From an uncultured Methanosarcinales archaeon (GTDB lineage: Archaea > Nanobdellota > Nanobdellia > Woesearchaeales > CAZKBD01): 36,784 bases of DNA. Each line of letters opens with the position of its first letter. Position 1 is the stretch's first letter. The stretch is from NCBI GenBank assembly GCA_964550945.1, contig CAZKBD010000008.1:1-36784 (forward strand). Reading direction: 5' to 3'. The notes under the pieces were generated by a model. It made no database searches, had not been told where the DNA came from, and worked only from the letters and a program-made list of their open reading frames with translations. This document shows positions 16,964 through 33,189 of this stretch, one piece after another. Position numbers and translations under genes: made by a program.

Positions 16964-17182
16964 CTAGGTTTTACACACTCTTCCATAGCTTATTTTATTC
17001 CACGCTCTTTCATGAATGTAGTAGCTAAATAGCTTAATTATAGCATCAGTAAATCCAATACCAAGTGATAAAACTATTTGTCCAGTAAACAAAAAGGCCA
17101 CTATTGCAGTAATAAATGTCGCAACAATCCGCCAAGTTATTGTTTTGGCTATGCTTCTTTTATGGCTTTCCAAAATAATCAC
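16964..17182 (-). CDS. DUF2061 small membrane protein
   Basis: ESHKRSIAKTITWR...YYIHERAW. Confidence 0.88.
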   Translation of the reverse strand: MIILESHKRSIAKTITWRIVATFITAIVAFLFTGQIVLSLGIGFTDAIIKLFSYYIHERAWNKISYGRVCKT

Positions 17183-18504
17183 CTAACCTCATTCAAAAGC
17201 CTCCCAGCCTCTTTTTCAAACCCGTATTCTTTTGAAGCTTTTATCAAATCATCCTCTATTCTTCCTATTCCTGTACCAGTTATATTGGCTACAACAACAT
17301 CATTTTCACTGAAGATTCCTAATTTAGCTGCCTTTATTATTCCGGCTATTGCCACGCCTCCAACAAATTGAGCAAATATCCCTTCTTTGAAGTATAAGTC
17401 AATTGTTGCCTTTACTATCTCCTTTTCAGCTACTTTAAAGCCTCCTCCTTTGCTTTCCGCTATCACGTCTAATGCTTGGTGTCCAGAGCCGGGTTTTCCA
17501 ATTGCTATTGACTTAGCAATGGTATTTGGGTTTTTGATAGGATGGATATCCTCTTTTCCAATTGCATCAATTATTGGAGAGCATTGTTCTGGCTGTACAC
17601 CCCACATTTTTATTGGATTATGAAAAAGATTAATGGTCTTCAGCTCATTAATGCCTTTATATGCTGAACAAAATAATGCGCCTGATCCTAAAGGATAAAA
17701 TATGTTTACTGTTTTATCTCTATTAATAAGTTTTTTTAACTGCAGGGCTATTTCTGTGCCAGATGTCTTAGATCCTTCTTTGTAATACGGCCTAAAACTG
17801 TTATTTGGAACAAAATTTGTCTTTTTCCCAGTAGTTTTTATCTCTTCTTCATTTGCCTTGTCACAATCATTCATTGCTTTTATGTTGCAATCATCATAGC
17901 TTAAGTCAAGCTCTTTTAAGTCATCTGGGCTTGGAAGGTATTGCCTTATTGCATCTTTTTTAATCTCTCCTAAACTTTTTGGCACATAAATAAAAGGCTT
18001 TATTCCTGTTTTCTCTGCAAAATAAGCAGAGGATATTGCTAAATTTCCTGTCGAAGCAACATACACCCTATTATAGCCTGATTCTAAGGCTTTGTTAAAT
18101 GCTAATGTCACTGGCCTATCTTTAAATGACCTTGTTGGGAGCGCTTCTGTGCAATCCAGTTTTAGGAATAACTTAATTCCAAGCTCTTTTCCAATGGATT
18201 TGGACTCAATAAGGGGGGTAAATGGCTGGTCTTGTGAAATTTTTATTTCATCAATTGGCAATAGCTCTTTTAATTTCCAGAAGGTATCTGGCCGCTTATT
18301 TAACTCTTGCTCTGTTAATATGCCTTTTAGTTTTTCATAATCATATTTAACATCTAAAGGGCCAAAACAAACATCATAACAGACATTAACTAAGATAGTC
18401 CCTTGCTCTTCCTTCAGCCTTTCAAGCGTATAAACCTCACCGCAGCTTAAGCATTGCAAATGCTTTACAAGCCCAAGTTTCGTTTTTGTTTTATCAAAGC
18501 CCAT
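17179..18504 (-). CDS. Threonine-synthase-like PLP enzyme (divergent)
   Basis: N-terminal CLSC..C..C, SFKDR (PLP Lys), ASTGN, EGSKT, PLGSG, SIAIGKP, NITGTG; start 18504 chosen from TATA spacing. Confidence 0.8.
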   Translation of the reverse strand: MGFDKTKTKLGLVKHLQCLSCGEVYTLERLKEEQGTILVNVCYDVCFGPLDVKYDYEKLKGILTEQELNKRPDTFWKLKELLPIDEIKISQDQPFTPLIESKSIGKELGIKLFLKLDCTEALPTRSFKDRPVTLAFNKALESGYNRVYVASTGNLAISSAYFAEKTGIKPFIYVPKSLGEIKKDAIRQYLPSPDDLKELDLSYDDCNIKAMNDCDKANEEEIKTTGKKTNFVPNNSFRPYYKEGSKTSGTEIALQLKKLINRDKTVNIFYPLGSGALFCSAYKGINELKTINLFHNPIKMWGVQPEQCSPIIDAIGKEDIHPIKNPNTIAKSIAIGKPGSGHQALDVIAESKGGGFKVAEKEIVKATIDLYFKEGIFAQFVGGVAIAGIIKAAKLGIFSENDVVVANITGTGIGRIEDDLIKASKEYGFEKEAGRLLNEVR

Positions 18505-18567
18505 TTTAAGTGTAAGCCCCATATTATTTATATACATTACTGACGCTAATATTCTTATTGGAATAAT

Positions 18568-20043
18568 CTACTTCTTAATTAATATCTTAACATAATTATC
18601 AACTTTTTCGAAATTAAACTTCAAATCATGTTTAAAGCAAAAACTGCCAATGGTTTCAACAGCAGGTAAATGATCAATTAATATTTCCAGGATTTGGCCT
18701 CTTTTTACCTTATCGATTACAGATTTTGAATGTTCTAAGGTAAAAGGGCAAATCTCACCCCTCAGATCTTCTCTTATAACGCCAGAATCCACACTCTCAA
18801 CAACCTGTGTTATGATTCCGCCGCCGGCAATATCATAATTATCAACTATAACAAATCTTCCTGTCACTTCATGATCAGCTGCAAGATCAAAGGCTATATC
18901 CTTTTTACAATAGATAATGCACTCTGCTACGTCATTTCTTTCAACCTGTTCTTTGCATGTAGCATTCAAATTAGTTGAATCTAATACTTTCAGTATTTTG
19001 TGAATTGAAATAGTGACTTCAAATGTAGTTAACTTAAGTTTGTATTCTTTATCTGTGGTCATGGGGTTTTTACCCATCCAAAATATATTTGCCTTGAATT
19101 CAGAACCAACGTAAGGCAGTTTTTCATAAACCTTACACATGATATCTCCTCTTTTAACATAAATCTGCTCCTTTAATGTGAATCCTGTAGAATGGCCGGC
19201 AGAAATGGTTTTTCTTGGCTTGATGTTAAATCCTTCTATTGAATTTATTTCAGACTCTTTTTTTGATGGCAGGAAAACAACTTTATCTCCAACATTTATT
19301 GATCCGGATTCAACTCTTCCAGCTATAATGCGCCTGTCATCATTAAACGCCGTAAACTTGTAAACCTCTTGTACTGGCAAGCGAAAATTTTGTTTTTCTA
19401 AAGATTCTGCTTTTTCAAAAGAGTCTAGTACAGATAATACCGTAAGGCCCTTAAACCACTCAAGATTACTTGAATGTTTTACAATATTGTCTCCTTCACG
19501 AGCTGAAATAGGGATAAATGCTTTTGGCACAATATTTATCTGATTAAGGAATTCTATATACTCTGTTTTTATTTTATTAAAGACTTTTTCATCATAATCA
19601 ACCAAATCCATCTTGTTTACACAAACCGCAACCTGTTTTATTCTGAGCATTGACAGCATATAGCCGTGCCTTTTTGAATTTTCTTTTATGCCTTCATTAG
19701 CATCAATAACAAGCAATGCTGCTTCTGCTCTTGCTGCCCCAGATATCATATTCTTCAAAAATTCAATATGCCCTGGCGCATCAATTATTATATACCCTCT
19801 TTTTTTACTCTTAAAAAAACATCTGGCTGTATCTATAGTAATGCCCTGGCTTTGTTCATCCTTTAAAGCATCAAGCAAATACGCATATTCAAAAGGCCTT
19901 GAATTTTTTTTACAATATTCTTTAACTTGCTCAAGCTTCCCTTTAGGTAAAGAGCCTGTATCAGCCAACAATCTGCCTATTACAGTGCTTTTACCATGGT
20001 CTACATGGCCAACAATAACAATATTCATATTTTGTTCCATCAC
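18568..20043 (-). CDS. cysN: Sulfate adenylyltransferase GTPase subunit with C-terminal TusA domain
   Basis: [32 protein letters not shown]-terminal DLRGEICPF TusA motif. Confidence 0.92.
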
Positions 20044-20921
20044 ATATACCCCTCCCTTCTTAGGGTTTCTAGGCCACCATTGTCTTCTTTATCCTGGTCT
20101 CTGCCAGATCGTTCTGCAATATTTGAAAATTTTCCGCTTTTTAATTCTTTAATAATCTCTTTTACAGTTTTAGCTGTTGATTCAACTGGTTTTGTACAAG
20201 GATAGCAGCCCAATGATCTGTATCTTAGGCCTTTGCCTTGGTCAAAATAAAGTTGGGTGATCGGAATATTTTCTCGTTCAATATATTCCCATATATCCAG
20301 TTCAGTCCAGTCTAACAAAGGATGCACCCTTATATGCGTTCCAGGAGCAAAATCTGTTTTAAATTGGTTCCATAGTTCAGGTGGCTGGTCAGACACGTCC
20401 CAGTCGCTGTGTTTGTCTCTCGGAGAGAAGTATCTCTCTTTAGATCTGCTGCCTTCTTCATCAGCCCTTGCGCCAACAATAACGCCAGTATAGGGCTCTT
20501 TATTCTCGTCTATTTCATACTTCTTAGTTTTATGATTAAACCTATACCTAGGCCATTCTCCTGATAATGTTTTTTTCAAAGCCTCTGTTTTTAATAATTT
20601 GCAGCAGGTTATTCTGTCTACCTTGCCATCTGGGAATGTTCGTTTCTGATTTAGAGCTTCTGCATTTTCTCCATAGATTATATTTAAGCCCAAATTCGCA
20701 GCCAATTCATCTCTAAATTTTATCATCTCCGGAATTTTGTAATGGGTATCAATATGAACTAATGGAAATGGGACATGGCCAAAAAAAGCTTTTCTTGCAA
20801 GCCACAGTAAAACAGTGCTATCCTTGCCAATGCTCCATAACATAACTAGATTCTTAAACTTACTATAAGCTTCTCTCAATATATATGCGCTTTGTTGTTC
20901 TAATTCTTCCAGATGATCCAT
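20040..20921 (-). CDS. cysD: Sulfate adenylyltransferase subunit 2
   Basis: [34 protein letters not shown], terminal EGYM. Confidence 0.95.
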
Positions 20922-20922
20922 T

Positions 20923-21638
20923 TTAGTGTTTTACGTGCAATCCGCACTCCCTTTGTTCAGGATTTTCCCACCACCACCTGCCTGATCTAAAATCTTCACT
21001 TTCTTTAACAGCCCTGGTACAAGGCTCACATCCAATAGAGGGATACCCTTTATCATGCAGCTTGTTATAAGGGATATTATTTTTTTTGATGTAATCCCAG
21101 ACCTGATTATGATTCCAGTCTGCCAGTGGATTAAATTTGATAATTTTGTTTGTATCGTCAATTTCTATTTTATGTATATTTTTTCTTGTGACAACCTGCT
21201 CTTGTCTTAACCCGGTTATCCATGCCTTAAAGCCTAATAAGGCTCTTTTTAATGGCTCTACTTTTCTTATATTGCAGCATTCCTTCCTATTTTCAATGCT
21301 CTCCCTAAATGAAAAAAAGCCCTTTTCGCGCTCTAATTTTTCAACATCCTCTTTTTTTGGAAAATATGTGTTAATTTTTACGCCATATTTTTCTCTTATT
21401 TCTTCCATGACTTGGTAAGTTTCTTCATGTAATCTGCCTGTATCAATTGTAAAAACCGCTATAGCNNNNNNNNNNTAAATATTAAATCAATTAAAACAAC
21501 ATCCTCTGCTCCAAAACTTGATGCTAGCGCTATTTTGCCTTTGAAATTGTTTGATGCGAATTTTAGCACTTCGTCTGCTGGCTTATTATCAAATTCTTCC
21601 TGATCTATGGACTTTCCTTTTATTGTTATGCATCCCAT
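20923..21638 (-). CDS. cysH: APS/PAPS reductase, [4Fe-4S] APS-reductase type; interrupted by an assembly gap
   Basis: [42 protein letters not shown]; the two ORF-track pieces lie on either side of 10 Ns. Confidence 0.9.
21466..21475. other. Scaffold gap (10 N)
   Basis: Run of n in the sequence. Confidence 1.
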
Positions 21639-21704
21639 TTTTATTACTATTAATGAGGGCATTTTATAAAGCTTTTTGATTAGAATATTCTTATCGGAAT
21701 AATC

Positions 21705-22949
21705 CTAGAACATATTTATTACTCTGGATGTTTTTTTAAGCTCGTTTAAGGAGTGGGCTTTAGAAATAAAGCATGCCTCAAACTGGGATGGTGGGAAATA
21801 AACGCCACTTTGGAGCAAGCGCTTATGCAGCATGGCAAATTGCTTTGTATCAGATTGCAGCGCTTTTTTGCAGTTATCAATTTTTTTATTTTTATTAAAA
21901 AATAAGGTGAACATAGATGCAATATTGTTTATTTTGATTTTATTATTGTTGATGGAGTTTACGAAGCGGTCAGTATTGTTTTCGAGTTTTCTATAAATCG
22001 ATTTATTTTTTAGCAGTTTTAATGTTTCAATGCCTGCAGTAGTTGCAACCGGGTTGCCTGATAAGGTGCCTGCTTGATAAACGGGGCCATCTGGAGCTAG
22101 TAACTCCATGATCTCTTTTTTGCCGCCAAAGGCCCCTATTGGAAATCCCCCCCCGATTATCTTGCCTAGAATTGTTAAATCCGGTTTTAATCGGTAATAT
22201 TTCTGAGCTCCTCCATAACTGACTCTAAATCCTGTGATTACTTCATCAAAAATTAGGATAATATTATTATCTTGCGTAATTTCTCTAAGCCCCTGCAAAA
22301 AATTGGCTTCTGGCAAGACAACCCCTATATTTGCCGGTATAGGCTCTATTATTAATGCTGCTATATCATTTTGTTTTTTAATTATTTTTTTTAGTGAATT
22401 TAGGTTATTGTATTCTGCTACTAAAGTGTCTTTTCTTAAGGAATGGCTGATGCCTGCAGAACTGGCAATGCCAAATGTAGCCAGCCCAGAGCCAGATTTT
22501 ACCAACAAGCTGTCAACATGGCCATGGTAGCATCCATCAAACTTGATTACCTTATCTTTTTTTGCAAAGCCCCTTGCAAGCCTTAAAGCTGACATAACCG
22601 CTTCTGTTCCTGAATTAACAAGCCTTACTTTTTGTATTGAAGGAATAGCACCTACAATTTGTTTTGCTAATCTTGTTTCCTGTAATGTCGGCGCTCCAAA
22701 GCTTGTTCCATTTTGCACGGCTTTTTTAACTGATTTTATTATTCTAGGATGGGCGTGGCCTAAAATTAAAGGGCCAAAGGACATGCAGTAGTCTATAAAC
22801 TTTTTACCTCTAATATCATAAATCTTAGAGCCCATGCCTTTCTTAATAAACAAGGGCGTTCCATCTACTGCTTTAAATGCCCTTACCGGGCTGTTAACTC
22901 CGCCAGGGATATATTTTTTTGCTTCAATAAAATCTTTTGAGCTCATCAT
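21705..22949 (-). CDS. hemL: Glutamate-1-semialdehyde 2,1-aminomutase
   Basis: PGGVNSPVRAF, SGTEA, FDEVITGFR, GKIIGGG, YQAGTLSGNP. Confidence 0.97.
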   Translation of the reverse strand: MMSSKDFIEAKKYIPGGVNSPVRAFKAVDGTPLFIKKGMGSKIYDIRGKKFIDYCMSFGPLILGHAHPRIIKSVKKAVQNGTSFGAPTLQETRLAKQIVGAIPSIQKVRLVNSGTEAVMSALRLARGFAKKDKVIKFDGCYHGHVDSLLVKSGSGLATFGIASSAGISHSLRKDTLVAEYNNLNSLKKIIKKQNDIAALIIEPIPANIGVVLPEANFLQGLREITQDNNIILIFDEVITGFRVSYGGAQKYYRLKPDLTILGKIIGGGFPIGAFGGKKEIMELLAPDGPVYQAGTLSGNPVATTAGIETLKLLKNKSIYRKLENNTDRFVNSINNNKIKINNIASMFTLFFNKNKKIDNCKKALQSDTKQFAMLHKRLLQSGVYFPPSQFEACFISKAHSLNELKKTSRVINMF

Positions 22950-23808
22950 CGATTATTCTTTCAACCTTTTTTATTTCCGCTTTTTTCTTTTTTTTATTCT
23001 CATTAATTATTTTTTTAAAATAATCCAACCTTATTACTGTAATATTGTTCATATTATCAATGGATTCTTCAACATCTGGTGGCATAGCTAAATCAACTAT
23101 AACAAGCTTTTTGCTCGGGATGATATCTTTTTGGTATAACACATAGGTAGGGCACGCTGTTGCGCAAAAAACAATATGCGTTTTTTTTAGTAGATTTCGG
23201 ATAGCATCAAGCTTGGCTGCCTTTCCATCAACTTTTTTTGCTAAATCTTTTGCCCTCTTGTAATGCCTGTTTGAGACTATTATCTCATCAATTTTTTTTC
23301 TGTAAAATGCTTTGGCTATCTTGCCAGCCAGCATTCCAGAACCAATAATCAGCACTTTTTTGGGATTGTGCTCTTTGATTACAAACGCAACAGCAATTGA
23401 AGGGAGGGAGGTTTTGCCATGATTTATTTTCGTCTCTGATCTTGCCTTCTTTGCCAGCTTTAATGCCCTGTCAAATGCGAATTTTAGCTCTTTGTTGCAC
23501 CGGCTTTCTTTTATTGCTGCTTCAAGAGCATTTTTAACTTGTAATGCAATCTCGTTCTCCCCGATTATCATTGAATCAATACCGCAAGCTACCTTAAACA
23601 AGTGCCTTAAGGCTTCTTTATTTTTTCTTATTCTGCACAAGTTAAGTCTGATTGGCCTGTCCGAGTAAATTTCCGCCCTGTTGCAGGTTATTACAGATAC
23701 AAAATTTTGGTTTTTTATATTAGGAATCTCCCTGGCTATATCATTTATAGCTCTAGCTAAACTATCCGCTCCGATTTCTTTAAAACTTGTGCCTGTCTGG
23801 TATATCAT
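22924..23808 (-). CDS. hemA: Glutamyl-tRNA reductase (short form)
   Basis: TCNRAEIY, GIDSMIIGENEI, Rossmann IIGSG, DLAMPPDV; only 294 aa. Confidence 0.88.
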   Translation of the reverse strand: MIYQTGTSFKEIGADSLARAINDIAREIPNIKNQNFVSVITCNRAEIYSDRPIRLNLCRIRKNKEALRHLFKVACGIDSMIIGENEIALQVKNALEAAIKESRCNKELKFAFDRALKLAKKARSETKINHGKTSLPSIAVAFVIKEHNPKKVLIIGSGMLAGKIAKAFYRKKIDEIIVSNRHYKRAKDLAKKVDGKAAKLDAIRNLLKKTHIVFCATACPTYVLYQKDIIPSKKLVIVDLAMPPDVEESIDNMNNITVIRLDYFKKIINENKKKKKAEIKKVERIIDDELKRFY

Positions 23809-25115
23809 CTTAGTTTGTTTAGTTCGCCAATATCCGGCTTTTCAAGCATGAGGTCAACATGAATGCCAAGTTTTTTTGCTTCAATAGCAACTTTAGGGCC
23901 AATAATAACAATTGATTTTTTATTTAATTTATTTATCGGAACAATTCCAGATAGGTGATTTAGTATTTCTGAGCTTGTAGGAAAGACTATGTCCGCCCTA
24001 TCTACACAGTTTCTAATTGATTTGTTCTTTAAATAAATAGCGTCATAGCATAATATTTTCCTAAATCCTTTTATATTAGACTCTCTTGAACAAAAAACAA
24101 TAACATCTTTTTTGTTATACCTCTTAAGATGGCCCATTAACCCGCCAGACGTCTGCATTGCTGGAACAATTGCTTTTTTTCCATATAGTTCAATTGTTTT
24201 TCTTGTTATGTCCCCTATAGCGATGAATCTTCCTTGTAGGTTTAATTGAGAAAAAACAGATTTTACAGCATTAGGCGATGTAAAAGCATATATCTTATTT
24301 TGTGGGGCATCTTTTAGTTTTCTATATCTTATTTTTATTAATGGGATGTTAACAACTTCGAATTTGTTTAACCTTTTCTTAGTTTCTTTCTCATTCTCCT
24401 TCTGCCTAAACAATAATATCGTTTTTCCATCCAAATACCGTTTAATCTTTCCAATAACTAATAAAGATGGGGCTTCTATTTGCGCTTCTTCGGCTAATTG
24501 CAGGATGTTACCTATCTTTCCATTTATTACCCTATAGTTTTCCTTAAATGCATTCTCTATCAAGATAAAATCAGAATGGATATGCTTATTTTTTTGTTTT
24601 AATCTTTTTATTATTTTCTCTAATCTTGAAACAGGCATATAAAAAACCAGCGTATCTGAGCAGATTCCAGGATAATGTGATGTGTCATCTGTCCTGCTTC
24701 CGGTTATTAATGCTACAGAAGATGATGTTTTTCTGTATGTTAGGGGTATCTTTAATTTATCTAGAACCTGGAACGCGCTTATGCCTGGCATTACTTCAAC
24801 ATTAATTCGGTTATTTCTTAAAAACAAATATTCTTCATAACCTCTGCCAAAGATAAAGGGGTCTCCGCAATGCAGCCTTGCGATTTTTTTGTTTTTATAC
24901 CTAAGGAATAGTCTGTTTATTCTTTCCTGTTTTGAGCTTTCTCCTGGTTTTTTTCCAACATATATCTTTTTGGCTTTTTTGCTTATTTTTAGAATATCTT
25001 TATCGATTAATCTATCGTAGAGTATTATGTCTGCTTGTGTTATAGCAGTTATTGCTTCTAAAGTCAGATGTTCTTTACTGATTCCACAGCCAACTAGATA
25101 TACTTTGTTTTCCAT
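23805..25115 (-). CDS. cobA: Uroporphyrinogen-III C-methyltransferase fused to a HemD-like domain
   Basis: VYLVGCG, YDRL, GDPFIFGRG, PGISA; C-terminal FTSPNAV, AIG..T, IGP. Confidence 0.88.
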   Translation of the reverse strand: MENKVYLVGCGISKEHLTLEAITAITQADIILYDRLIDKDILKISKKAKKIYVGKKPGESSKQERINRLFLRYKNKKIARLHCGDPFIFGRGYEEYLFLRNNRINVEVMPGISAFQVLDKLKIPLTYRKTSSSVALITGSRTDDTSHYPGICSDTLVFYMPVSRLEKIIKRLKQKNKHIHSDFILIENAFKENYRVINGKIGNILQLAEEAQIEAPSLLVIGKIKRYLDGKTILLFRQKENEKETKKRLNKFEVVNIPLIKIRYRKLKDAPQNKIYAFTSPNAVKSVFSQLNLQGRFIAIGDITRKTIELYGKKAIVPAMQTSGGLMGHLKRYNKKDVIVFCSRESNIKGFRKILCYDAIYLKNKSIRNCVDRADIVFPTSSEILNHLSGIVPINKLNKKSIVIIGPKVAIEAKKLGIHVDLMLEKPDIGELNKLR

Positions 25116-25909
25116 TTTTTAATATCTTTTATAACTGAATCTTTATCTCCTGAAAAATTGGCTAATACCCGTTTATTATTTTGGTATACCAGGCCAACAA
25201 GATTAAATTTATGATTATATTCATCGTTATACCCGCAATACGCACCAACTGGTTTTTTACAGCCACCTAGATATTTAATAAATTCTCTTTCAAGCATACA
25301 GCAATCATACAATTTGTCTTTTTTGAACTTAATTTTGTCTTTTTTTCTCTTGACAACTGCAATAGCTCCTTGGCCTGCTGCTGGAACCATGTCCTTTATT
25401 GGAAATATTCTATTTTTTATTTTAATATTTAACCTATCTAAGGCGCATTTCGCGGTTATTATTGCATCATATTCCTTATTTTTTAGTTTTTTAATCCTTG
25501 TTGGGATATTCCCCCGTAGGGATTTAAATTTTACATTGGGATGTAAATGTTTTAACTCGTATTGCCTTCTTATACTGTCTGTTCCGATAAGTGCGTCTGG
25601 TTTTAGTTTACCTATCAAGCAATCTCTTGGATCATCTCTTCTAACAATTGAGGCGATCTCTAGATTCTTTGGGAAGCCATCTACAGGGATATCTTTTAGT
25701 GAATGGATAGCAACATCAATTTTTTTATTTAATAAGGCGTTGTCAAGTTCTTTGGTGAATATTGCAGTTCCGATCTTTTGCAGCGGTTTTTTTATGGTGC
25801 CCCCTTTTGTTTTTATTATCTTTATTTTGTAATTTTTTAATCTAAACCCATCAATAAACAATTCAACTTGCTTTAATGCTAATTTAGAGCCTCTAGTGCC
25901 TATTATCAT
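25094..25909 (-). CDS. hemC: Hydroxymethylbilane synthase
   Basis: IGTRGSKLA, HSLKD, LRGNIPTR, PAAGQG, GGCKKP cofactor Cys. Confidence 0.93.
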   Translation of the reverse strand: MIIGTRGSKLALKQVELFIDGFRLKNYKIKIIKTKGGTIKKPLQKIGTAIFTKELDNALLNKKIDVAIHSLKDIPVDGFPKNLEIASIVRRDDPRDCLIGKLKPDALIGTDSIRRQYELKHLHPNVKFKSLRGNIPTRIKKLKNKEYDAIITAKCALDRLNIKIKNRIFPIKDMVPAAGQGAIAVVKRKKDKIKFKKDKLYDCCMLEREFIKYLGGCKKPVGAYCGYNDEYNHKFNLVGLVYQNNKRVLANFSGDKDSVIKDIKKWKTKYI

Positions 25910-26831
25910 TCAACCACCTTAAAATCTCAAATGCGCCGTAACTAATAATAATATCAGCCCCTGCCCTTTTTATTCCGATTAGCGCTTCGTACAACAAATC
26001 CATGCCTTGATGTCTTAACATTACATATTCTCCACTGACATTGTATGCTGCTAAAGGGACATTAAATTTTTCTCTTGCTTTTGAGATAATGTCTAAATAG
26101 GCTAATGCTGGCTTTATCATGACAATATCCGCGCCCTCTTTGATATCAATCTCAATCTCTCTCAAAGCTTGCCTGCTGTTCCTAAAGTCCATCTGGTATG
26201 TCTTGCGGTCTTTTGGCCCATCCCTAGGTGTGGATTCTACAGCATCCCTAAATGGTCCGTAGAAGTTTGATGCAAATTTAGCTGAATATGACATTATTTT
26301 TGTTTTTTTGAACTCTGCTTTGTTTAGGGCTTCTCTAATTGATTTTACCTGGAAGTCCATCATTGCAGAAGGGCACACATAATCCGCACCTGCTTTGGCG
26401 TGGCTTACAGCAATTTTATTCAGCAGAGCTAAAGTTTCGTTGTTGTCGACATTATTGTTTTTTAAAACTCCACAATGCCCATGAGAAGTATATTGGCATA
26501 AGCAAACATCAGTATAAATTGGAATTTTAGAGATTGACTTTATTTTTTTTATTGTTTTTTGTATTATTCCAGTATCGCTGTAAGCTTCAGTGCCAAGATA
26601 ATCTTTTTTTGAGGGAATTCCAAACAATAAAATTCCTTTTAGATGTTTACATTCTTTTATTATCTCATGAATATCGTTTAGTGAATATCTAAATTGTCCT
26701 GGTAAGCTTGATATTGGCTCTTTTTTGCTTATATTTTCTTTAATAAAAATAGGATAGATGAAATCTTCAGGTTTAAGGGCTGTCTCACTAACCTTATCCC
26801 TGATTTCCTGGTTTTTTCTTAACTCCCTCAT
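25893..26831 (-). CDS. hemB: Porphobilinogen synthase (Zn type)
   Basis: DVCLCQYTSHGHCG, PSAMMD, YGPFRDA, MIKPA, YNVSGEY. Confidence 0.97.
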   Translation of the reverse strand: MRELRKNQEIRDKVSETALKPEDFIYPIFIKENISKKEPISSLPGQFRYSLNDIHEIIKECKHLKGILLFGIPSKKDYLGTEAYSDTGIIQKTIKKIKSISKIPIYTDVCLCQYTSHGHCGVLKNNNVDNNETLALLNKIAVSHAKAGADYVCPSAMMDFQVKSIREALNKAEFKKTKIMSYSAKFASNFYGPFRDAVESTPRDGPKDRKTYQMDFRNSRQALREIEIDIKEGADIVMIKPALAYLDIISKAREKFNVPLAAYNVSGEYVMLRHQGMDLLYEALIGIKRAGADIIISYGAFEILRWLNDNRH

Positions 26832-27253
26832 TTTATCATCGATTTAAGTTTTTTAACAACACTAGTTTTTTTGCCAAAAGAAGTAATCCCAATCCCTTTC
26901 TTTTTAACATAAGCTGGAAAAATGACATTTCCTTTAGAATGTTTGTCTGCTCTGCAAACCAGGCTGTTATTCTTTATTGATTTGGTTAATCTCTCATTGG
27001 TTTTTTTATCATTGGTTGCAATAATCACTAAAAAATAATCTTTGAAATTTATTTTTAGTTTATTGATATCTTTTTTTATTAATTTTAGATTTTTATTTTT
27101 TATTGGCCCCAATTTTTTATCAAAATCCATAGAAATGACTATGATTGTAGCTCCAGCTTTAAGCAAATATAAAGCCCGTCTAGAGCCTACTTTGCCACCC
27201 CCGATTATAAGGATTTTTTTATTCTTTAAATTTACAAATAAGGGATAGTACAT
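26828..27253 (-). CDS. sirC: Precorrin-2 dehydrogenase (SirC/CysG N-terminal type), short
   Basis: YPLFVNL, IGGGKVG, IATND, ADK..GNVIFPA. Confidence 0.82.
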   Translation of the reverse strand: MYYPLFVNLKNKKILIIGGGKVGSRRALYLLKAGATIIVISMDFDKKLGPIKNKNLKLIKKDINKLKINFKDYFLVIIATNDKKTNERLTKSIKNNSLVCRADKHSKGNVIFPAYVKKKGIGITSFGKKTSVVKKLKSMIK

Positions 27254-27489
27254 TATAATTTTGTGACAACAAACTCAAAAACTTCTTTACCTTCTTGCTC
27301 TTTTCTATTGAATTCAATAATCTTAGAGTTGGATCCTTTTACAACCATAGGTATAGATTCACAGCTTCTTTTGTCATCTGCAAGAATCCTCACTATATCG
27401 CCCTTTTTCAATTGTTCAAGTTTTTCCCTGGACTTTGCTTCAGGAATAGGGCATCTTGTTCCGATTAAATCTAGTGTTTGTTCGCTCAT
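27253..27489 (-). CDS. TusA/SirA-family sulfurtransferase
   Basis: LDLIGTRCPIP, ILADD. Confidence 0.88.
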   Translation of the reverse strand: MSEQTLDLIGTRCPIPEAKSREKLEQLKKGDIVRILADDKRSCESIPMVVKGSNSKIIEFNRKEQEGKEVFEFVVTKL

Positions 27490-28424
27490 TTTATTATGTT
27501 CTTTAGCTTTATGCCTTTTAACGCGTGTTTTTTGAATTCTTCTAAACCAACCTCCTCTATCATCTTGCCTACCCTAACTTTGGTTGGATACTTATTGAAA
27601 TATTCAAGAGTATTATCGAGAATCTTGAATGCTTCATCTTCTGTAACAAATTCTGCTATTTTATTTGCAAATCTTGGGAATTTTCCAACATTTCCGCCAA
27701 CATGAATGTTGTATCCATTCGCTCTCTCTCCAATAGCATCCAAGGGGCAGCATCTTAAGCAGACTCCGCAGTCAATGCATCTGCTGTAATCTATTACTGC
27801 TAGCTTATCTTCATTTATGGTTATACATTCAACTGGGCAGGCCTTTACGCAAACTTCACATCCAGTGCAATTCTCTAAAATATCTGGCCTAATAACTGCC
27901 ATAAGACCAAAATCTCTTATCTGGGGGAATACACATGAATTTGGACAGCCTGCAACTGAAGTCTTGAATTTATGTCTTGTGAATGTTCCAAAATATTTCT
28001 TATCAATCTTTCTTGCAAGTTTTTGAGTATCTGAATTGCCGTATATGCACTCGGGTATGGCAGGACATGCTGTAACATTTCTAAATGTTGCTGAGCATGA
28101 CCCAGGAGGCATGTTAATTTTTTCTAGCTCTTTGGTTATTGCCTCTTTATCTTTCCATTCAATATATGGAATTTGGAAATCCTGAACAGTGGTTAGTTTT
28201 ACCTTGACATAAGCATTTGGCGCATCTACTTCGTCTGCTTTTGAGTATTTTTCAGTTATTCTTGCTAATTCCCTAAGCTGATCCGGAGTTGCTTCTCCGC
28301 CAGGTAATCTTGTCCTTAGTGTGAAATATTTTGGGTCTCGCTGAACAAGATAGCCTTTTTTCTTAAAGCCTGCAAAATCATCTGACTTCAGCGTATCTAA
28401 TTTGACCCTATCTTTTTTTGCCAT
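27486..28424 (-). CDS. Small siroheme sulfite/nitrite reductase with 2[4Fe-4S] ferredoxin insert (Dsr-like/AsrC-like)
   Basis: RTRLPGG, RNVTACPAIPEC (CX5C), GCPNSC, CTGCEVCVKACP, CIDCGVCLRCCP; GGTGG SD before 28424. Confidence 0.85.
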   Translation of the reverse strand: MAKKDRVKLDTLKSDDFAGFKKKGYLVQRDPKYFTLRTRLPGGEATPDQLRELARITEKYSKADEVDAPNAYVKVKLTTVQDFQIPYIEWKDKEAITKELEKINMPPGSCSATFRNVTACPAIPECIYGNSDTQKLARKIDKKYFGTFTRHKFKTSVAGCPNSCVFPQIRDFGLMAVIRPDILENCTGCEVCVKACPVECITINEDKLAVIDYSRCIDCGVCLRCCPLDAIGERANGYNIHVGGNVGKFPRFANKIAEFVTEDEAFKILDNTLEYFNKYPTKVRVGKMIEEVGLEEFKKHALKGIKLKNIIK

Positions 28425-28433
28425 AAAAACCAC

Positions 28434-28979
28434 CTATGACTTATATTTTGGAACTTTTTTGTCTTTTATTTCATCATAAATTTTTTTAGGAACGCTAATA
28501 ATTAGCTCATCATCCTTGAATTTTCCATAAATGCGGGCGCCGCCACATAACAAAGTCAGATTAGGTTTTTGCTCATTATATACTTTTGCAATTGCTTCTC
28601 CAGATATTGCGGCTTCACACTTAAACTCTGGATTTAACACCTTAAGCAAAAAGGTCAACCTCATCCCTTGTTCTGGATTAACAATAAGGAGTACAACATC
28701 AGCACATTCAACAGGCCCGATCTTAACTGATTTTATTTTCTTTTTAATCCTTGGCTCATAATCTTTAATATATCTCGGCTCTTCAAAACCCAAAGAAACA
28801 TGAGAGTATGGATCTGTTAATGTGTCGCTTGTAACAATGAATGTTTTTCCTGTAGTGGCAGATTCTCTGACTAATTTATCAAAATACTCGGGTTTTTCTA
28901 TAGGCTTGCCTAGTAATTTCTCTGATAGGGTTATTCCTACTGGATTTAGTTTTAAACCTAATTCTTTTTTAAGTGGCAT
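28434..28979 (-). CDS. DUF169-like protein
   Basis: LGLKLNPVGI, DVVLLIVNPEQ, LLCGGAR, DDELIISVP. Confidence 0.7.
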   Translation of the reverse strand: MPLKKELGLKLNPVGITLSEKLLGKPIEKPEYFDKLVRESATTGKTFIVTSDTLTDPYSHVSLGFEEPRYIKDYEPRIKKKIKSVKIGPVECADVVLLIVNPEQGMRLTFLLKVLNPEFKCEAAISGEAIAKVYNEQKPNLTLLCGGARIYGKFKDDELIISVPKKIYDEIKDKKVPKYKS

Positions 28980-28980
28980 G

Positions 28981-29310
28981 TTATATTTTCTTTAATGACT
29001 TTTTGATTTTTTCTTTCAGGTCTTCTCCTGTGATTTCTCCTGTGAACCTTTCAATTTCCTTTCCTCTGTTGAAGATTACTATCGTCGGAACGCTTCTTAT
29101 CTCTAATTTTATTGCTGTAACTCTTTCATCTTCATCTATGTTGTACTTGGCAAAATCCAGCTCTTTAATTTCATTAGATGCTTTCTCAAATGTTGGAGCA
29201 AACCTTTTGCATGGAGCACACCAGCTGCCATAAAAGTCAATGATTATCGGCTTAGGATTATCTTTGCTGATTTTGTTTCTTATTGATTCTTTAGTTAGTT
29301 CTTCTACCAT
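28981..29310 (-). CDS. trxA: Thioredoxin
   Basis: WCAPC, IRSVPT. Confidence 0.93.
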   Translation of the reverse strand: MVEELTKESIRNKISKDNPKPIIIDFYGSWCAPCKRFAPTFEKASNEIKELDFAKYNIDEDERVTAIKLEIRSVPTIVIFNRGKEIERFTGEITGEDLKEKIKKSLKKI

Positions 29311-30774: not shown

Positions 30775-30833
30775 TTGTCAAAAACCAGAGGTTTTTGAGC
30801 ATGCTCAGAAACGCTTGCGTTTCTGACATATTA
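30775..30833. repeat. Palindromic REP-like element, compact copy, overlapping the cysM-JAMM 3' end
   Basis: TTGTCAAAAACC-AGA-GGTTTTTGA-GCATGC-TCAGAAACGC-TT-GCGTTTCTGACATATTA: two perfect hairpins. Confidence 0.8.
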
Positions 30834-32139
30834 ATTCCTCTTTGAACTCTTTTCCAGAGTCATTTAGTTGGTATGACCTTATTGCCATTACGCTTCCTTT
30901 ATAAATGTTAACTATTATGTAGGATATAACTGGCTGCGCTATATTTAAATCTGTGCCAGATGGTCTTGGCGGATGGTCTGGGTGAGAATGGTAAACACCA
31001 ATAATATCCAAGCCTTTCTTTCTAGCATAATCGTCAATCTTTTTATATTCTTTAGGGTCAATTTCAAATCTATCAACCGCTCTTTCTTTAATAATATTTT
31101 TAGCATCAATAACCTCTTTTATATATTTTTTTTCATTCTTTATATTTCCCAATAATAAGCCACAACCTTCATTTGGATAGGTCTTCTTTAAATGTTTGAC
31201 CATTTTATCAATATCTTCTTGGTTGATAAAAACACCGGAATATTCATCCCCCCAAAAATCCTTGCTGATGTATCTATCGCCATGGTCAGGAAAAACCGTT
31301 ACAACTACCCCTTTTTTCAAGCTATTTGCAACTTGTAAAGCGCCAGCAGCAGCAGCCCCAGAACTTAATCCCACAAATAAGCCCTCTTCTTTAGCAATCC
31401 TTTTTACCATATTATAGGCATCCTCTGTTTTTACCTTGATTTTTTTGTCCAGATACTCCTGCTCATATATTTTAGGGACTATGGAGCTTTCAATGTGCTT
31501 TAAGCCTTCCAGACCGTGCATCTCTTCTGCAGGCTCTATAGCAATTACTTTAATGCCCATATTAAGATGTTTTAGCCTTCTTCCTGCACCAATTAAAGTT
31601 CCGCCTGTCCCAACTCCGGTCACAAAATGAGTGATTTTGCCGTTAGTTTGATTCCATATCTCAACTCCAGTTCCCAAGAAATGCGCCCTGCTGTTTGAAA
31701 GGTTTGTGTACTGATCAGGTTTAAAATAAATATCAGGATGTTTTTTATATTCTTTCTGGCATTCTATCATCGCTCCATCCGAACCGTCTAATGGGCTAGT
31801 GAAGACAACATCTGCGCCAAACTCCTTAATAATATTCTTTCTTTCTTCACTAACGTTTAAAGGCATAAACAATTTGACTCTATATCCCTTTAGTTTACCA
31901 ATAACAGCCAAAGCAATTCCAGTGTTGCCTGAAGTTGATTCGAGAATAATCTTGTCTTTTTTTAATTTTCCTAATCTTTCACCATCAGCCACCATTTGAT
32001 ACGCTGCTCTATCCTTAACTGAGCCGCTTAAATTAAACCACTCTGCTTTTGCAAATACCTTAACCTTCTTGTTTTTATTTAAGTTCTTTAATTCAATTAA
32101 AGGCGTGTTTCCTATTAACCTAAATATATCTTTATTCAT
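30805..32139 (-). CDS. cysM: Cysteine synthase (CysM/O-phosphoserine sulfhydrylase type) fused to a JAMM/Mec+ metallopeptidase
   Basis: IGNTPL, SGSVKDR, TSGNTG, GTGGT, PDHGDRY; C-terminal PNEGCG...YHSHPDHPPRPSGTD. Start 32139 has an ATGA overlap with the tusA stop. Confidence 0.92.
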   Translation of the reverse strand: MNKDIFRLIGNTPLIELKNLNKNKKVKVFAKAEWFNLSGSVKDRAAYQMVADGERLGKLKKDKIILESTSGNTGIALAVIGKLKGYRVKLFMPLNVSEERKNIIKEFGADVVFTSPLDGSDGAMIECQKEYKKHPDIYFKPDQYTNLSNSRAHFLGTGVEIWNQTNGKITHFVTGVGTGGTLIGAGRRLKHLNMGIKVIAIEPAEEMHGLEGLKHIESSIVPKIYEQEYLDKKIKVKTEDAYNMVKRIAKEEGLFVGLSSGAAAAGALQVANSLKKGVVVTVFPDHGDRYISKDFWGDEYSGVFINQEDIDKMVKHLKKTYPNEGCGLLLGNIKNEKKYIKEVIDAKNIIKERAVDRFEIDPKEYKKIDDYARKKGLDIIGVYHSHPDHPPRPSGTDLNIAQPVISYIIVNIYKGSVMAIRSYQLNDSGKEFKEELICQKRKRF

Positions 32140-32366
32140 CTTTTTTTGATAAGGATTCTCCAATCTGTATTATTCAATTTTTTAACTTCTAAGATTTTGT
32201 TTCCTTCATTGCTCATGCTTCTTGGCACGTTTTCTGTTGCTGGTTGATGATCTAGTATGATCTCTAGTATCTGCCCGGATTTTAGCTCTTCTATAGCTAA
32301 TTTTGATTTTACAAATGTATATGGGCATATTTCGCCTTTAATGTTGATTGTTTTGTCAAACTTCAT
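32136..32366 (-). CDS. TusA-family sulfurtransferase
   Basis: INIKGEICPYT, LDHQPA; GGAG SD before ATG 32366. Confidence 0.9.
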   Translation of the reverse strand: MKFDKTINIKGEICPYTFVKSKLAIEELKSGQILEIILDHQPATENVPRSMSNEGNKILEVKKLNNTDWRILIKKR

Positions 32367-32417
32367 TTTTTCTCCAAATATGGTCTTTAAATAGAAAATC
32401 AAAAGTAAGATATAAAC

Positions 32418-32495
32418 TTATTGGCAATGAGGTGCATTACAGCAACAGCTACAACAAGAAGGAATACAAGCATGATTATTTTGCTGTTTACTCAT
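32418..32495 (-). CDS. Cys-rich 25-aa leader ORF (candidate attenuator peptide)
   Basis: Manual translation MSKQQNNHACIPSCCSCCCNAPHCQ*; 7 Cys, 5 of them within 6 codons; ATG 32 nt from the TATA box start. Confidence 0.75.
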   Translation of the reverse strand: MSKQQNNHACIPSCCSCCCNAPHCQ

Positions 32496-32517
32496 AGTTA
32501 GTTTATGGTTACGAACT

Positions 32518-32527
32518 TATTTATAAA
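32518..32527 (-). promoter_or_regulatory. BRE-TATA promoter of the leader-tusA-cysM unit
   Basis: Minus strand reads ACAAAAAA-TTTATAAATA. Similar TATA-to-ATG spacing (30-33 nt) occurs at trxA (29336-29343), cysH (21663-21670) and the thrC-like gene (18527-18534). Confidence 0.7.
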
Positions 32528-32601
32528 TTTTTTGTTTCTATTATTCTTTTTGGAATATGCTACCGATAAATATAAAAATAGGCCAGGATTACCTTATTGA
32601 G

Positions 32602-33189
32602 ATGGAATACTCGCTAAGGCATAAAACATTATATGAATCATTTTTTAGAAGAAAGAATGTTTTTCTTGATATATCTATGATGCTAATGGCAGTCGTATTC
32701 CTTGCATTCTTATCAAATCTTTACATCCCGCTATGGCCTGTGCCAATTACTGGCCAGACATTTGGCATATTCCTTATAGCTTTTTGGTTCGGCTCAAGAA
32801 AGGGATTAGCTTCAATTGCGCTTTATGTATTGGCTGGGCTAATAGGATTTGGTGTTTTTGCGCAGCATTCATTTGGCATCAAAGTCATTTTAGGGCCCAC
32901 AGGAGGATATATCCTAGGATTCCTTGCATCTGTATTTCTTGTTGGCTACTTGATTGAAAAGGGATATGGAAGGACAAAAACATCTGTTTTGTATTGTGTT
33001 GCTATTGGAAGTGGCATAATATACATTTTCGGCCTTATTGGATTGTGGATATATTTCGGGAATGTAGGATTATGGAAGATCCTGACAATGGGGCTTTTCC
33101 CTTTCCTGATTGGGGATGCTATCAAGGCTGTGGCAGCTGTTGCCTTATTCCCTTATTTATGGAAGGGCAGCGAGAAGATTTCTAAGTAG
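32602..33189 (+). CDS. bioY: Biotin transporter S-component BioY
   Basis: PVPITGQTF, GPTGGYILGF, PFLIGD. Confidence 0.9.
   Translation: MEYSLRHKTLYESFFRRKNVFLDISMMLMAVVFLAFLSNLYIPLWPVPITGQTFGIFLIAFWFGSRKGLASIALYVLAGLIGFGVFAQHSFGIKVILGPTGGYILGFLASVFLVGYLIEKGYGRTKTSVLYCVAIGSGIIYIFGLIGLWIYFGNVGLWKILTMGLFPFLIGDAIKAVAAVALFPYLWKGSEKISK

Follow-up and report, generated by a model that had tools for sequence, protein, structure and literature searches.

The window analyzed here is a stretch of 36,784 nucleotides (nt), contig CAZKBD010000008.1, from an uncultured groundwater archaeon of the order Woesearchaeales. On its minus strand, a TATA box, a small open reading frame (sORF), and a U-rich spacer precede a gene unit comprising tusA, cysM fused to a JAB domain (cysM/JAB), and cysS (Table 1). 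A preliminary description of this DNA, prepared from the letters alone, had singled out a TATA box and a 25-amino-acid (aa) ORF with 7 Cys, including the codons TGT TGT AGC TGT TGC TGT, as well as a 51-nt spacer with U-tracts ahead of a tusA-cysM/JAMM-cysS unit. All of these parts are present, on the minus strand and at the coordinates listed in Table 1, and profile matches confirmed the identities of the downstream genes. We propose that the sORF is probably the sensing part of a conserved cis-acting leader with which Woesearchaeota-type archaea would sense Cys-tRNA, because no other reading explains a leaderless ORF that ends in a Cys run and is tied exclusively to cysM, cysE, cysS, and tRNA-Cys.

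Table 1. Positions of the leader mini-gene and of the genes that follow it in the window (SD, Shine-Dalgarno sequence; PLP, pyridoxal phosphate)
Feature	Position	Strand	Remarks
TATA box TTTATAAA	32520..32527	minus	24 nt upstream of sORF ATG; leaderless promoter by sequence; box kept in orthologous leaders
Leader sORF, MSKQQNNHACIPSCCSCCCNAPHCQ, 25 codons + stop	32418..32495	minus	7 Cys/25 residues; 1 of 2 strict genome matches
sORF start codon ATG	32495-32493	minus	
Cys-codon run TGT TGT AGC TGT TGC TGT, presumed sensing (stall) site	32439..32456	minus	
CTCATTG, remnant of conserved post-stop box; here read as codons (P)HC	32425..32431	minus	
Spacer, 51 nt, U-rich (63% U over first 30 nt)	32367..32417	minus	
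U4 tracts in spacer	32401-32404 and 32395-32398	minus	
SD GGAGA before tusA	32371-32375	minus	
tusA-like sulfurtransferase gene, 76 aa, first SD-led gene of unit	32136..32366	minus	Pfam PF01206, 3.2e-22; ATG at 32366
cysM (PLP cysteine synthase) fused to JAB/MPN domain	30805..32163	minus	PALP 3.3e-65, Prok-JAB 2.2e-25, TIGR01138 3e-104
cysS, cysteine--tRNA ligase, 464 aa	29364..30758	minus	TIGR00435, 8.4e-146, above cut-off

The host genome (1.97 Mb, 36.6% GC, 92% complete) is archaeal, carrying two TBP genes and an archaeal small subunit rRNA. All 14 sequencing runs listed for the region 31900-32700 are DNA metagenomes. We surveyed the spacing between a TTTAWWWA box and the start codon for its 1415 ORFs of at least 150 aa. 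The distance between the box's 3' end and the ATG showed a sharp peak at 22-24 nt (181/1415 ORFs), with 244/1415 ORFs falling at 20-27 nt, and an SD was present in only 5 of those 244. The TATA-ATG spacing of the sORF, 24 nt, lies within this peak, in keeping with the earlier remark that it resembles the spacing of other apparently leaderless genes, and no SD precedes the ATG. From these features we infer a leaderless start of the kind that characterizes the mycobacterial leaderless sORFs.

The sORF is also more than a chance occurrence. Of the 31,748 ATG-initiated sORFs of 5-60 aa in the whole genome, 40 qualify as Cys-dense, with just 3 of the 40 located outside any ORF of at least 100 aa. 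Under a strict definition applied to both strands (box, 20-27 nt, ATG, up to 40 codons with an in-frame CCC, stop), exactly two matches exist in 1.97 Mb, namely the window sORF and MMVNCICCC on contig C66, and both stand ahead of cysS. More specifically, MMVNCICCC is followed by tRNA-Cys(GCA) and then by the second cysS gene (C66 9228-10457; the two paralogues, that one and the window copy, are 67% identical), such that each cysS of this genome sits behind its own poly-Cys leader. The C66 tRNA-Cys is the sole tRNA-Cys-like sequence detectable in the assembly, for which the sensitivity of ARAGORN was poor (12 tRNAs in total).

Thirty-four leaders, numbered with the prefix L, were gathered by three routes: cysM-anchored loci of 60 relatives, an order-wide pattern scan, and scans of metagenomes and of a species collection. 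Because the first order-wide pattern matched 264 of 401 genomes mostly in the out-of-frame, Leu-rich N-termini of leaderless genes, only in-frame hits were used, taken from the matches listed (~150 rows; 395 further matches are not in that list). The tally of 401 includes 11 genomes flagged as unpublished, on which no claim rests. Wherever 398 nt or more were available downstream (31/31 leaders), cysM/K, cysE, or cysS follows on the same strand (cysE identity was confirmed by NCBIfam for L072, L074, and L077), and in 13 leaders tRNA-Cys is the very next feature (9 found by ARAGORN and 4, which bear insertions, by alignment). When loci were anchored on cysM/K, a TATA box plus a poly-Cys sORF occurred within 1 kb in 10 of the 16 relatives' loci with at least 500 nt of upstream sequence, and an 11th carries a poly-Cys sORF without a strict box. 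Without that anchor, 10 of the 13 in-frame matches with usable downstream DNA, among the matches listed, precede Cys genes. We rejected L078, L080, and L083 as probable chance matches, which overlap larger ORFs and have neither a box nor a Cys gene downstream; the DNA downstream of L068, L073, and L081 was too short to judge, and L069 was left undecided in the pattern list.

At least 18 families of the order contribute leaders to this set. Together with those of metagenomic relatives, these leaders provide the recurrence that the preliminary description had put forward as a check, i.e., Cys-run sORFs with divergent flanks ahead of cys units in related genomes, and they lend strong support to its core reading of a poly-Cys leader ORF devoted to the supply of cysteine. 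A phylum-wide pattern, in which TRR also admitted TGG and which depended on the box, so that box-less leaders would be missed, returned 30 loci, only L130 being a real leader; under this box-dependent pattern, the 12 loci found in other orders (83 genomes) included no real leader. The window sORF itself is enriched in Cys codons (7/25) and stands at the head of the cognate biosynthesis/synthetase operon. Its closest relative is L087, with a CysM-JAB protein 80% identical to that of the window and a unit comprising MNIKQQNKECICFCCSCSCC, tusA, cysM/JAB, and cysS. In three other close relatives (77-78% identical), MNICICCCC or MKTCICCCCR lies ~40 nt before cysM/JAB, and there is no tusA. In addition, six metagenome-assembled genome records (L132, L138, L139, L142, L144, and L155) carry a Woesearchaeota-type leader.

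The leader peptide is not conserved, since its length varies from 7 to 29 aa, its N-termini are unrelated, and indels separate orthologues. Conserved are the box-to-ATG spacing, the in-frame Cys run, and the position of that run at the end of the ORF, with the stop codon directly after it in nearly all cases. All of the 34 leaders have a CCC-type run except L087 (CCSCSCC) and L136 (CCR). Beyond the stop lies a second conserved element, the post-stop box UUCUUUCAUUGUUUU (consensus (A)AUUCUUUCAUUGUUUUAGUU), which begins 1-2 nt after the stop codon. In 31 of the 34 leaders, CAU lies 5-10 nt past the stop codon. The end of the first U4 tract falls 15-22 nt beyond the stop in 18 of the 34, versus 7.6% of the stops of long ORFs in the host genome; in 17 of 34 it falls at +16 to +19. 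This box is dedicated to the leaders: in the host genome (G000), only the C66 copy matches within 2 mismatches, and among 24 occurrences of the exact 20-nt box in 185,579 species, the copies lie directly after Cys codons and a stop in 9/9 archaeal cases and in 0/15 bacterial ones.

The leaders include a class B, made up of the window orthologues L087, L074, and L077 together with L012, L017, and L027, in which the final Cys codons pair with an ACA(R)C box to form a hairpin of 5-8 bp with the stop codon in its loop (present in 6/6, -3.8 to -7.8 kcal/mol; the mean was reached by 0/2000 shuffles). Class A, which is mostly tRNA-linked, has no stop-spanning hairpin. Judged by its sequence, the window leader is a deviant member of class B. 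Its Cys-run nucleotides are the same as those of the orthologous sORFs in L074 and L077, and the run of the L087 orthologue differs by one base. Relatives have a stop after the Cys run; because the window lacks it, the remnant of the post-stop box is read as codons there: the ORF continues through the box (CCU CAU UGC) to a TAA 18 nt on, with CAT located 6 nt past the position of the relatives' stop. The class-B hairpin is replaced by a small GUAAUG/CAUUGC hairpin. The U4 tract is kept at +17 although the stop has shifted by 18 nt; that is, the first U4 ends 17 nt after the shifted stop, and a Cys codon lies two codons before that stop.

Several leader loci carry further peculiarities. In L009 (1320-3734; G040:C89), an 804-aa single-ORF fusion of cysteine synthase (PALP) and cysteinyl-tRNA ligase starts 16 nt after the poly-Cys leader. 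The tRNA-Cys genes of L076, L082, L005, and L141 have one or two insertions at noncanonical sites (in the D-loop, close to the anticodon, or in the T-loop). All four were missed or miscalled by ARAGORN and the Rfam tRNA model and were recognized only by alignment to the intron-less tRNA-Cys of L075. A second, SD-led small ORF of 18-20 codons lies between the leader and cysE or DUF2061-cysM in L074 (G258:C20), L077, L072, and L012, is conserved at the peptide level across families (MIQVTIINTNDIFEEFNEK, MNITIINTNDPYEEFKEK, MQTNYQTVNPEDKAEEFRDK, and MQKMISITADDRSVDFEEK), and has no counterpart in the window; the stop codon of the L074 copy overlaps the start of cysE (ATGA). This second ORF could be a relay ORF or an arrest-type peptide. 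In the metagenome contigs L088 (385-640) and L089, CysM is 45-47% identical, JAB is a separate gene, and the leaders are longer, with 9 or 6 consecutive Cys (MTRKINIKCCCCCCCCCTGPPGRRNGI) and a second Cys-run sORF farther upstream. A perfect 19-bp hairpin follows the leader, the 5' arm of which (AACAACAAAAG...) is complementary to the Cys run (z = -2.7), and the arrangement looks more like a classical switch. Finally, the 190-nt spacer between leader and tusA in L087 contains an extra, GC-richer stem-loop at ~2700-2760 (GGGGTAC...GTACCTC) that is absent from the window.

In the mechanism that we propose, transcription would start at or beside the ATG of the sORF, and the ribosome would load on the 5' end of this leaderless transcript and decode the run of Cys codons with which the mini-ORF ends. 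A shortage of Cys-tRNA(Cys) would make the ribosome dwell on the Cys run, and this dwelling would raise the expression of tusA-cysM/JAB-cysS here and of cysM/K, cysE, cysS, or the tRNA-Cys gene elsewhere. Taken on its own, sensing by ribosome stalling appears quite likely to us. Given such sensing, the chance that the output acts on the transcript, and not on the ribosome-binding site belonging to the next gene, seems a little short of even. In this respect, the distance from the stop codon to the 5' end of the tRNA is only 24-32 nt in eight loci, placing the mini-ORF inside the pre-tRNA leader; a gap of this size leaves no room for a second promoter and no SD-based control, and thus points to control at the transcript level.

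Transcription and translation are coupled in archaea, where the polymerase terminates without hairpins. Positioned on the final codons or the stop, a ribosome could gate a hairpin-independent premature termination at the U-rich box, which would be either intrinsic or brought about by aCPSF1/FttA, a factor that the host genome encodes (TIGR03675, 904 bits). The aCPSF1 protein is reported to bind U4 tracts (PMC8716108), and FttA to bind U-rich RNA, which it cleaves at a distance of 22 nt from the RNA 3' end (PMC11616081). The fixed distance from stop to U-tract, the FttA gene, the binding of U4, and the 22-nt cut together suggest a geometric model, according to which a polymerase at the end of U4 would place the FttA cut in the last Cys codon or the stop codon, i.e., at the site of the stalled ribosome, such that stalling would block termination. 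Such gating would be of the tna type, in which a ribosome at the end of the leader masks a site for a termination factor beside the stop codon. We put forward, tentatively and as a possibility that we rate below even, an attenuator without an RNA switch, in which the ribosome on the last Cys codons gates FttA-dependent or intrinsic termination at a U-tract 16-19 nt past the stop, and in which tRNA-Cys would thereby be self-controlling.

Several points weigh against the proposed sensing leader and its output. The tRNA-Cys on C66 has its own TATA-like box 24 nt upstream, and therefore the leader may not be the sole route to the tRNA at that locus. As kin are not independent, the leader counts overstate the number of independent events. 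No T4 occurs within 60 nt in L075, L077, L012, L027, and L009, and in L005 the first lies at +60; with U4 missing or distant in several leaders, the U-tract cannot account for everything. The termination model leaves the conserved CAU and the pyrimidine part of the box unexplained, the timing of termination assumes a polymerase pause, and the direction of control (stall = ON) is assumed from physiology. The window leader itself is atypical, having neither the post-run stop nor the stop-spanning hairpin of its orthologues, and it could be partly decayed. Lastly, the leaders have no excess stability, with z-scores of ~0 to +1.8 in 27 of 28; as they are no more structured than shuffles, a classical terminator/antiterminator pair is not supported.

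The window leader conforms to this picture. The two alternative pairings of the Cys codons that had been predicted for it both appear in its minimum-free-energy fold, but that fold (-13.2 kcal/mol, z = +0.40) is no stabler than those of shuffled sequences. Likewise, the mutually exclusive terminator and antiterminator hairpins of classical trp/his attenuators were found neither by z-score nor as a hairpin plus T-run. A scan that does not model archaeal signals yielded no bacterial-type terminator, no hairpin-plus-T-run, and no sigma-70 signal above shuffles. Rfam returned 0 matches at the gathering score and, on 32200-32650, 0 at E <= 1. We did detect a weak tendency toward pairing between the 5' end (15 nt) and the post-stop region, cognate duplexes being on average 1.1 kcal/mol better than noncognate ones (permutation p = 0.0019, 28 leaders). 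This does not hold for the window, which ranks 13th of 28 candidate partners, and kinship and shared base composition could lie behind the effect; no covariation was seen between position +4 and the base before CAU. We regard the pairing as a weak lead, and it may represent an additional closing helix.

We weighed four other explanations. One is translational attenuation of the mycobacterial type, in which the Cys tract or adjacent RNA would pair with the next SD and a stalled ribosome would free it. SD release is what the closest characterized system uses (bioRxiv 10.1101/834739), and most downstream protein genes here are SD-led; in L009, moreover, the leader stop lies only 16 nt before the cysM-cysS start. 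A simulated stall raised SD accessibility in 4-5 of 18 leaders (L009, L084, L006, and L070), but the effect was not consistent: accessibility fell in 3 of 18, and the unpaired probability in the window stayed the same (0.31 -> 0.31). Constraint folding of these 18 leaders revealed no SD-sequestering duplex of the Cys tract such as that of Ms5788A, the leaders are not stably folded, and SD release cannot explain the 13 leaders in which a tRNA gene is directly next. We consider this explanation unlikely. Control of RNA lifetime seems quite unlikely as well. A ribosome parked near the 5' end would here shield the leaderless transcript from 5'-to-3' decay or from cleavage in the box, with no termination involved, much as ermC mRNA is stabilized by a stalled ribosome. 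That the sORF begins at the very 5' end fits such shielding, as does the specificity of the box to these leaders, which could make it a cleavage site; yet trimming of the 5' leader of a pre-tRNA would not lower tRNA output, and no sequence feature points to a nuclease site.

The two remaining explanations dispense with a sensing ribosome. The sORF could encode a working Cys-rich micropeptide, e.g., one that binds or carries metal or sulfur and is expressed along with sulfur genes, in line with its 7 Cys in 25 residues and with neighbors that include TusA, thioredoxin, and sulfite reductase. A micro-metallothionein, which the preliminary description had offered as its alternative, fits poorly with a length of 7-29 aa and conservation of the C-terminal Cys run only. 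Homologous positions hold MTECCCC and MMVNCICCC, without fixed Cys spacing; orthologues differ by indels, and the C-terminal NAPHCQ of the window peptide is missing in its closest relative. Furthermore, the sequence conserved outside the run is noncoding and post-stop, and a sulfur-storage peptide leaves the linkage to tRNA-Cys and cysS unexplained, all of which makes a working peptide very improbable. Equally hard to credit is an untranslated RNA or DNA element, in which a protein or small RNA would bind the UGU repeats and the box, the ORF being incidental. The Cys-run nucleotides are indeed identical in the window, L074, and L077, synonymous sites included, and a conserved noncoding box follows. 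In contrast, TGT and TGC alternate freely across leaders, and all 9/9 archaeal matches to the motif alone have an in-frame ATG at leaderless distance from a TATA box, no internal stop, and a stop right after the run, whereas an RNA repeat would need no ORF frame.

Among characterized systems, the nearest to the candidate Cys-tRNA-sensing leader is that of the mycobacterial polycysteine leaderless sORFs (Ms5788A type, the "Cys ribulon"; Canestrari et al., bioRxiv 10.1101/834739). These share with the archaeal leaders a leaderless first ORF, consecutive Cys codons at its 3' end, a position at the head of cysteine operons, and several loci per genome (2 here). The archaeal leaders differ in the domain of life and in their TATA promoter, and hence are convergent rather than homologous; the SD-sequestering duplex was not found, and they have tRNA-Cys and cysS as targets and a conserved post-stop box. 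Cys leader peptides were also predicted in Actinobacteria by Seliverstov et al. in 2005 (PMC1262725), with Rho-dependent termination, as at tna, being proposed. In the accessible part of that paper, they resemble the leaders described here in having Cys runs near the stop, no conserved terminator hairpins, and a proposed factor-dependent termination, but they are bacterial and SD-led, and are predicted for cys and cbs operons only, with no tRNA or aminoacyl-tRNA synthetase targets. The trp, his, and pheST attenuators, as summarized in the mycobacterial preprint (10.1101/834739), likewise place a short ORF rich in cognate codons before biosynthesis or synthetase genes and use ribosome position as the sensor; the archaeal leaders have neither a terminator/antiterminator hairpin pair nor a bacterial-type terminator. 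With the T-box, it is tRNA-Cys charging as controller of synthetase and biosynthesis genes that would be shared, yet Rfam gave no match here, not even at E <= 1. The T-box leaders that Firmicutes have at cysS/cysE bind tRNA directly, without a ribosome.

The preliminary description knew of no characterized archaeal example, and we likewise found no archaeal leader ORF that senses an amino acid in open-access papers and bioRxiv. Within that literature, control by such leaders has so far been published only for bacteria. Ribosome profiling of Haloferax reported upstream ORFs and, in the accessible part of the report, no attenuation (PMC7261190). The sensing logic is thus shared with bacteria, and what is new is the domain of life, a conserved box behind the stop, a class of leaders without the hairpin, and the use of tRNA-Cys and cysS as targets.

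Downstream of the leader, the cysM/JAB ORF is listed from 32163 but likely begins at 32139, with an ATG that overlaps the stop of tusA (ATGA). Further genes on the same strand comprise thioredoxin, DUF169, a sirohaem-type sulfite reductase, a second tusA, the sirohaem/haem-precursor genes NAD_binding_7, hemB, hemC, cobA/hemD, hemA, and hemL, two PAPS-reductase-family genes, a cysN::TusA fusion, and another PLP enzyme. Accordingly, the leader heads a co-directional sulfate-to-cysteine-to-Cys-tRNA cluster of ~15 kb. The minus strand of the window at 17179-29310 is therein a contiguous assimilatory sulfate reduction, sirohaem, and cysteine cluster in a DPANN-type genome, and this cluster holds the cysN::TusA fusion (18568-20043), two TusA genes, and the CysM::JAB fusion. 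The combination of cysN::TusA, TusA, and CysM::JAB suggests, by analogy, a sulfur-carrier-protein route similar to CysO/CysM/Mec, the mycobacterial route of that type. Two tblastn queries did not find cysE in the 92%-complete assembly.

Such sORFs lie below the cut-off of every gene caller, and hence are invisible in current annotations. The commonest form of the leader, a mini-ORF inside the 5' leader of pre-tRNA-Cys itself, indicates that a tRNA precursor can harbor a protein-coding mini-gene in its 5' leader. At ~110 nt, the leader is a compact, sequence-defined candidate element, of which dozens of natural variants exist; transferred to a genetically tractable archaeon, it could serve to ask whether ribosome position controls archaeal termination, and it could show whether FttA/aCPSF1 is under translation-dependent control as Rho is. 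If the self-controlling attenuator is true, the sole detectable tRNA-Cys of this host would control its own synthesis and also the production of CysM and CysRS, since translation of the tRNA precursor would require it. For the group as a whole, the leaders and the cluster suggest that some small-genome DPANN archaea keep a complete supply line from sulfate to cysteine to Cys-tRNA, which would be regulated in cis.

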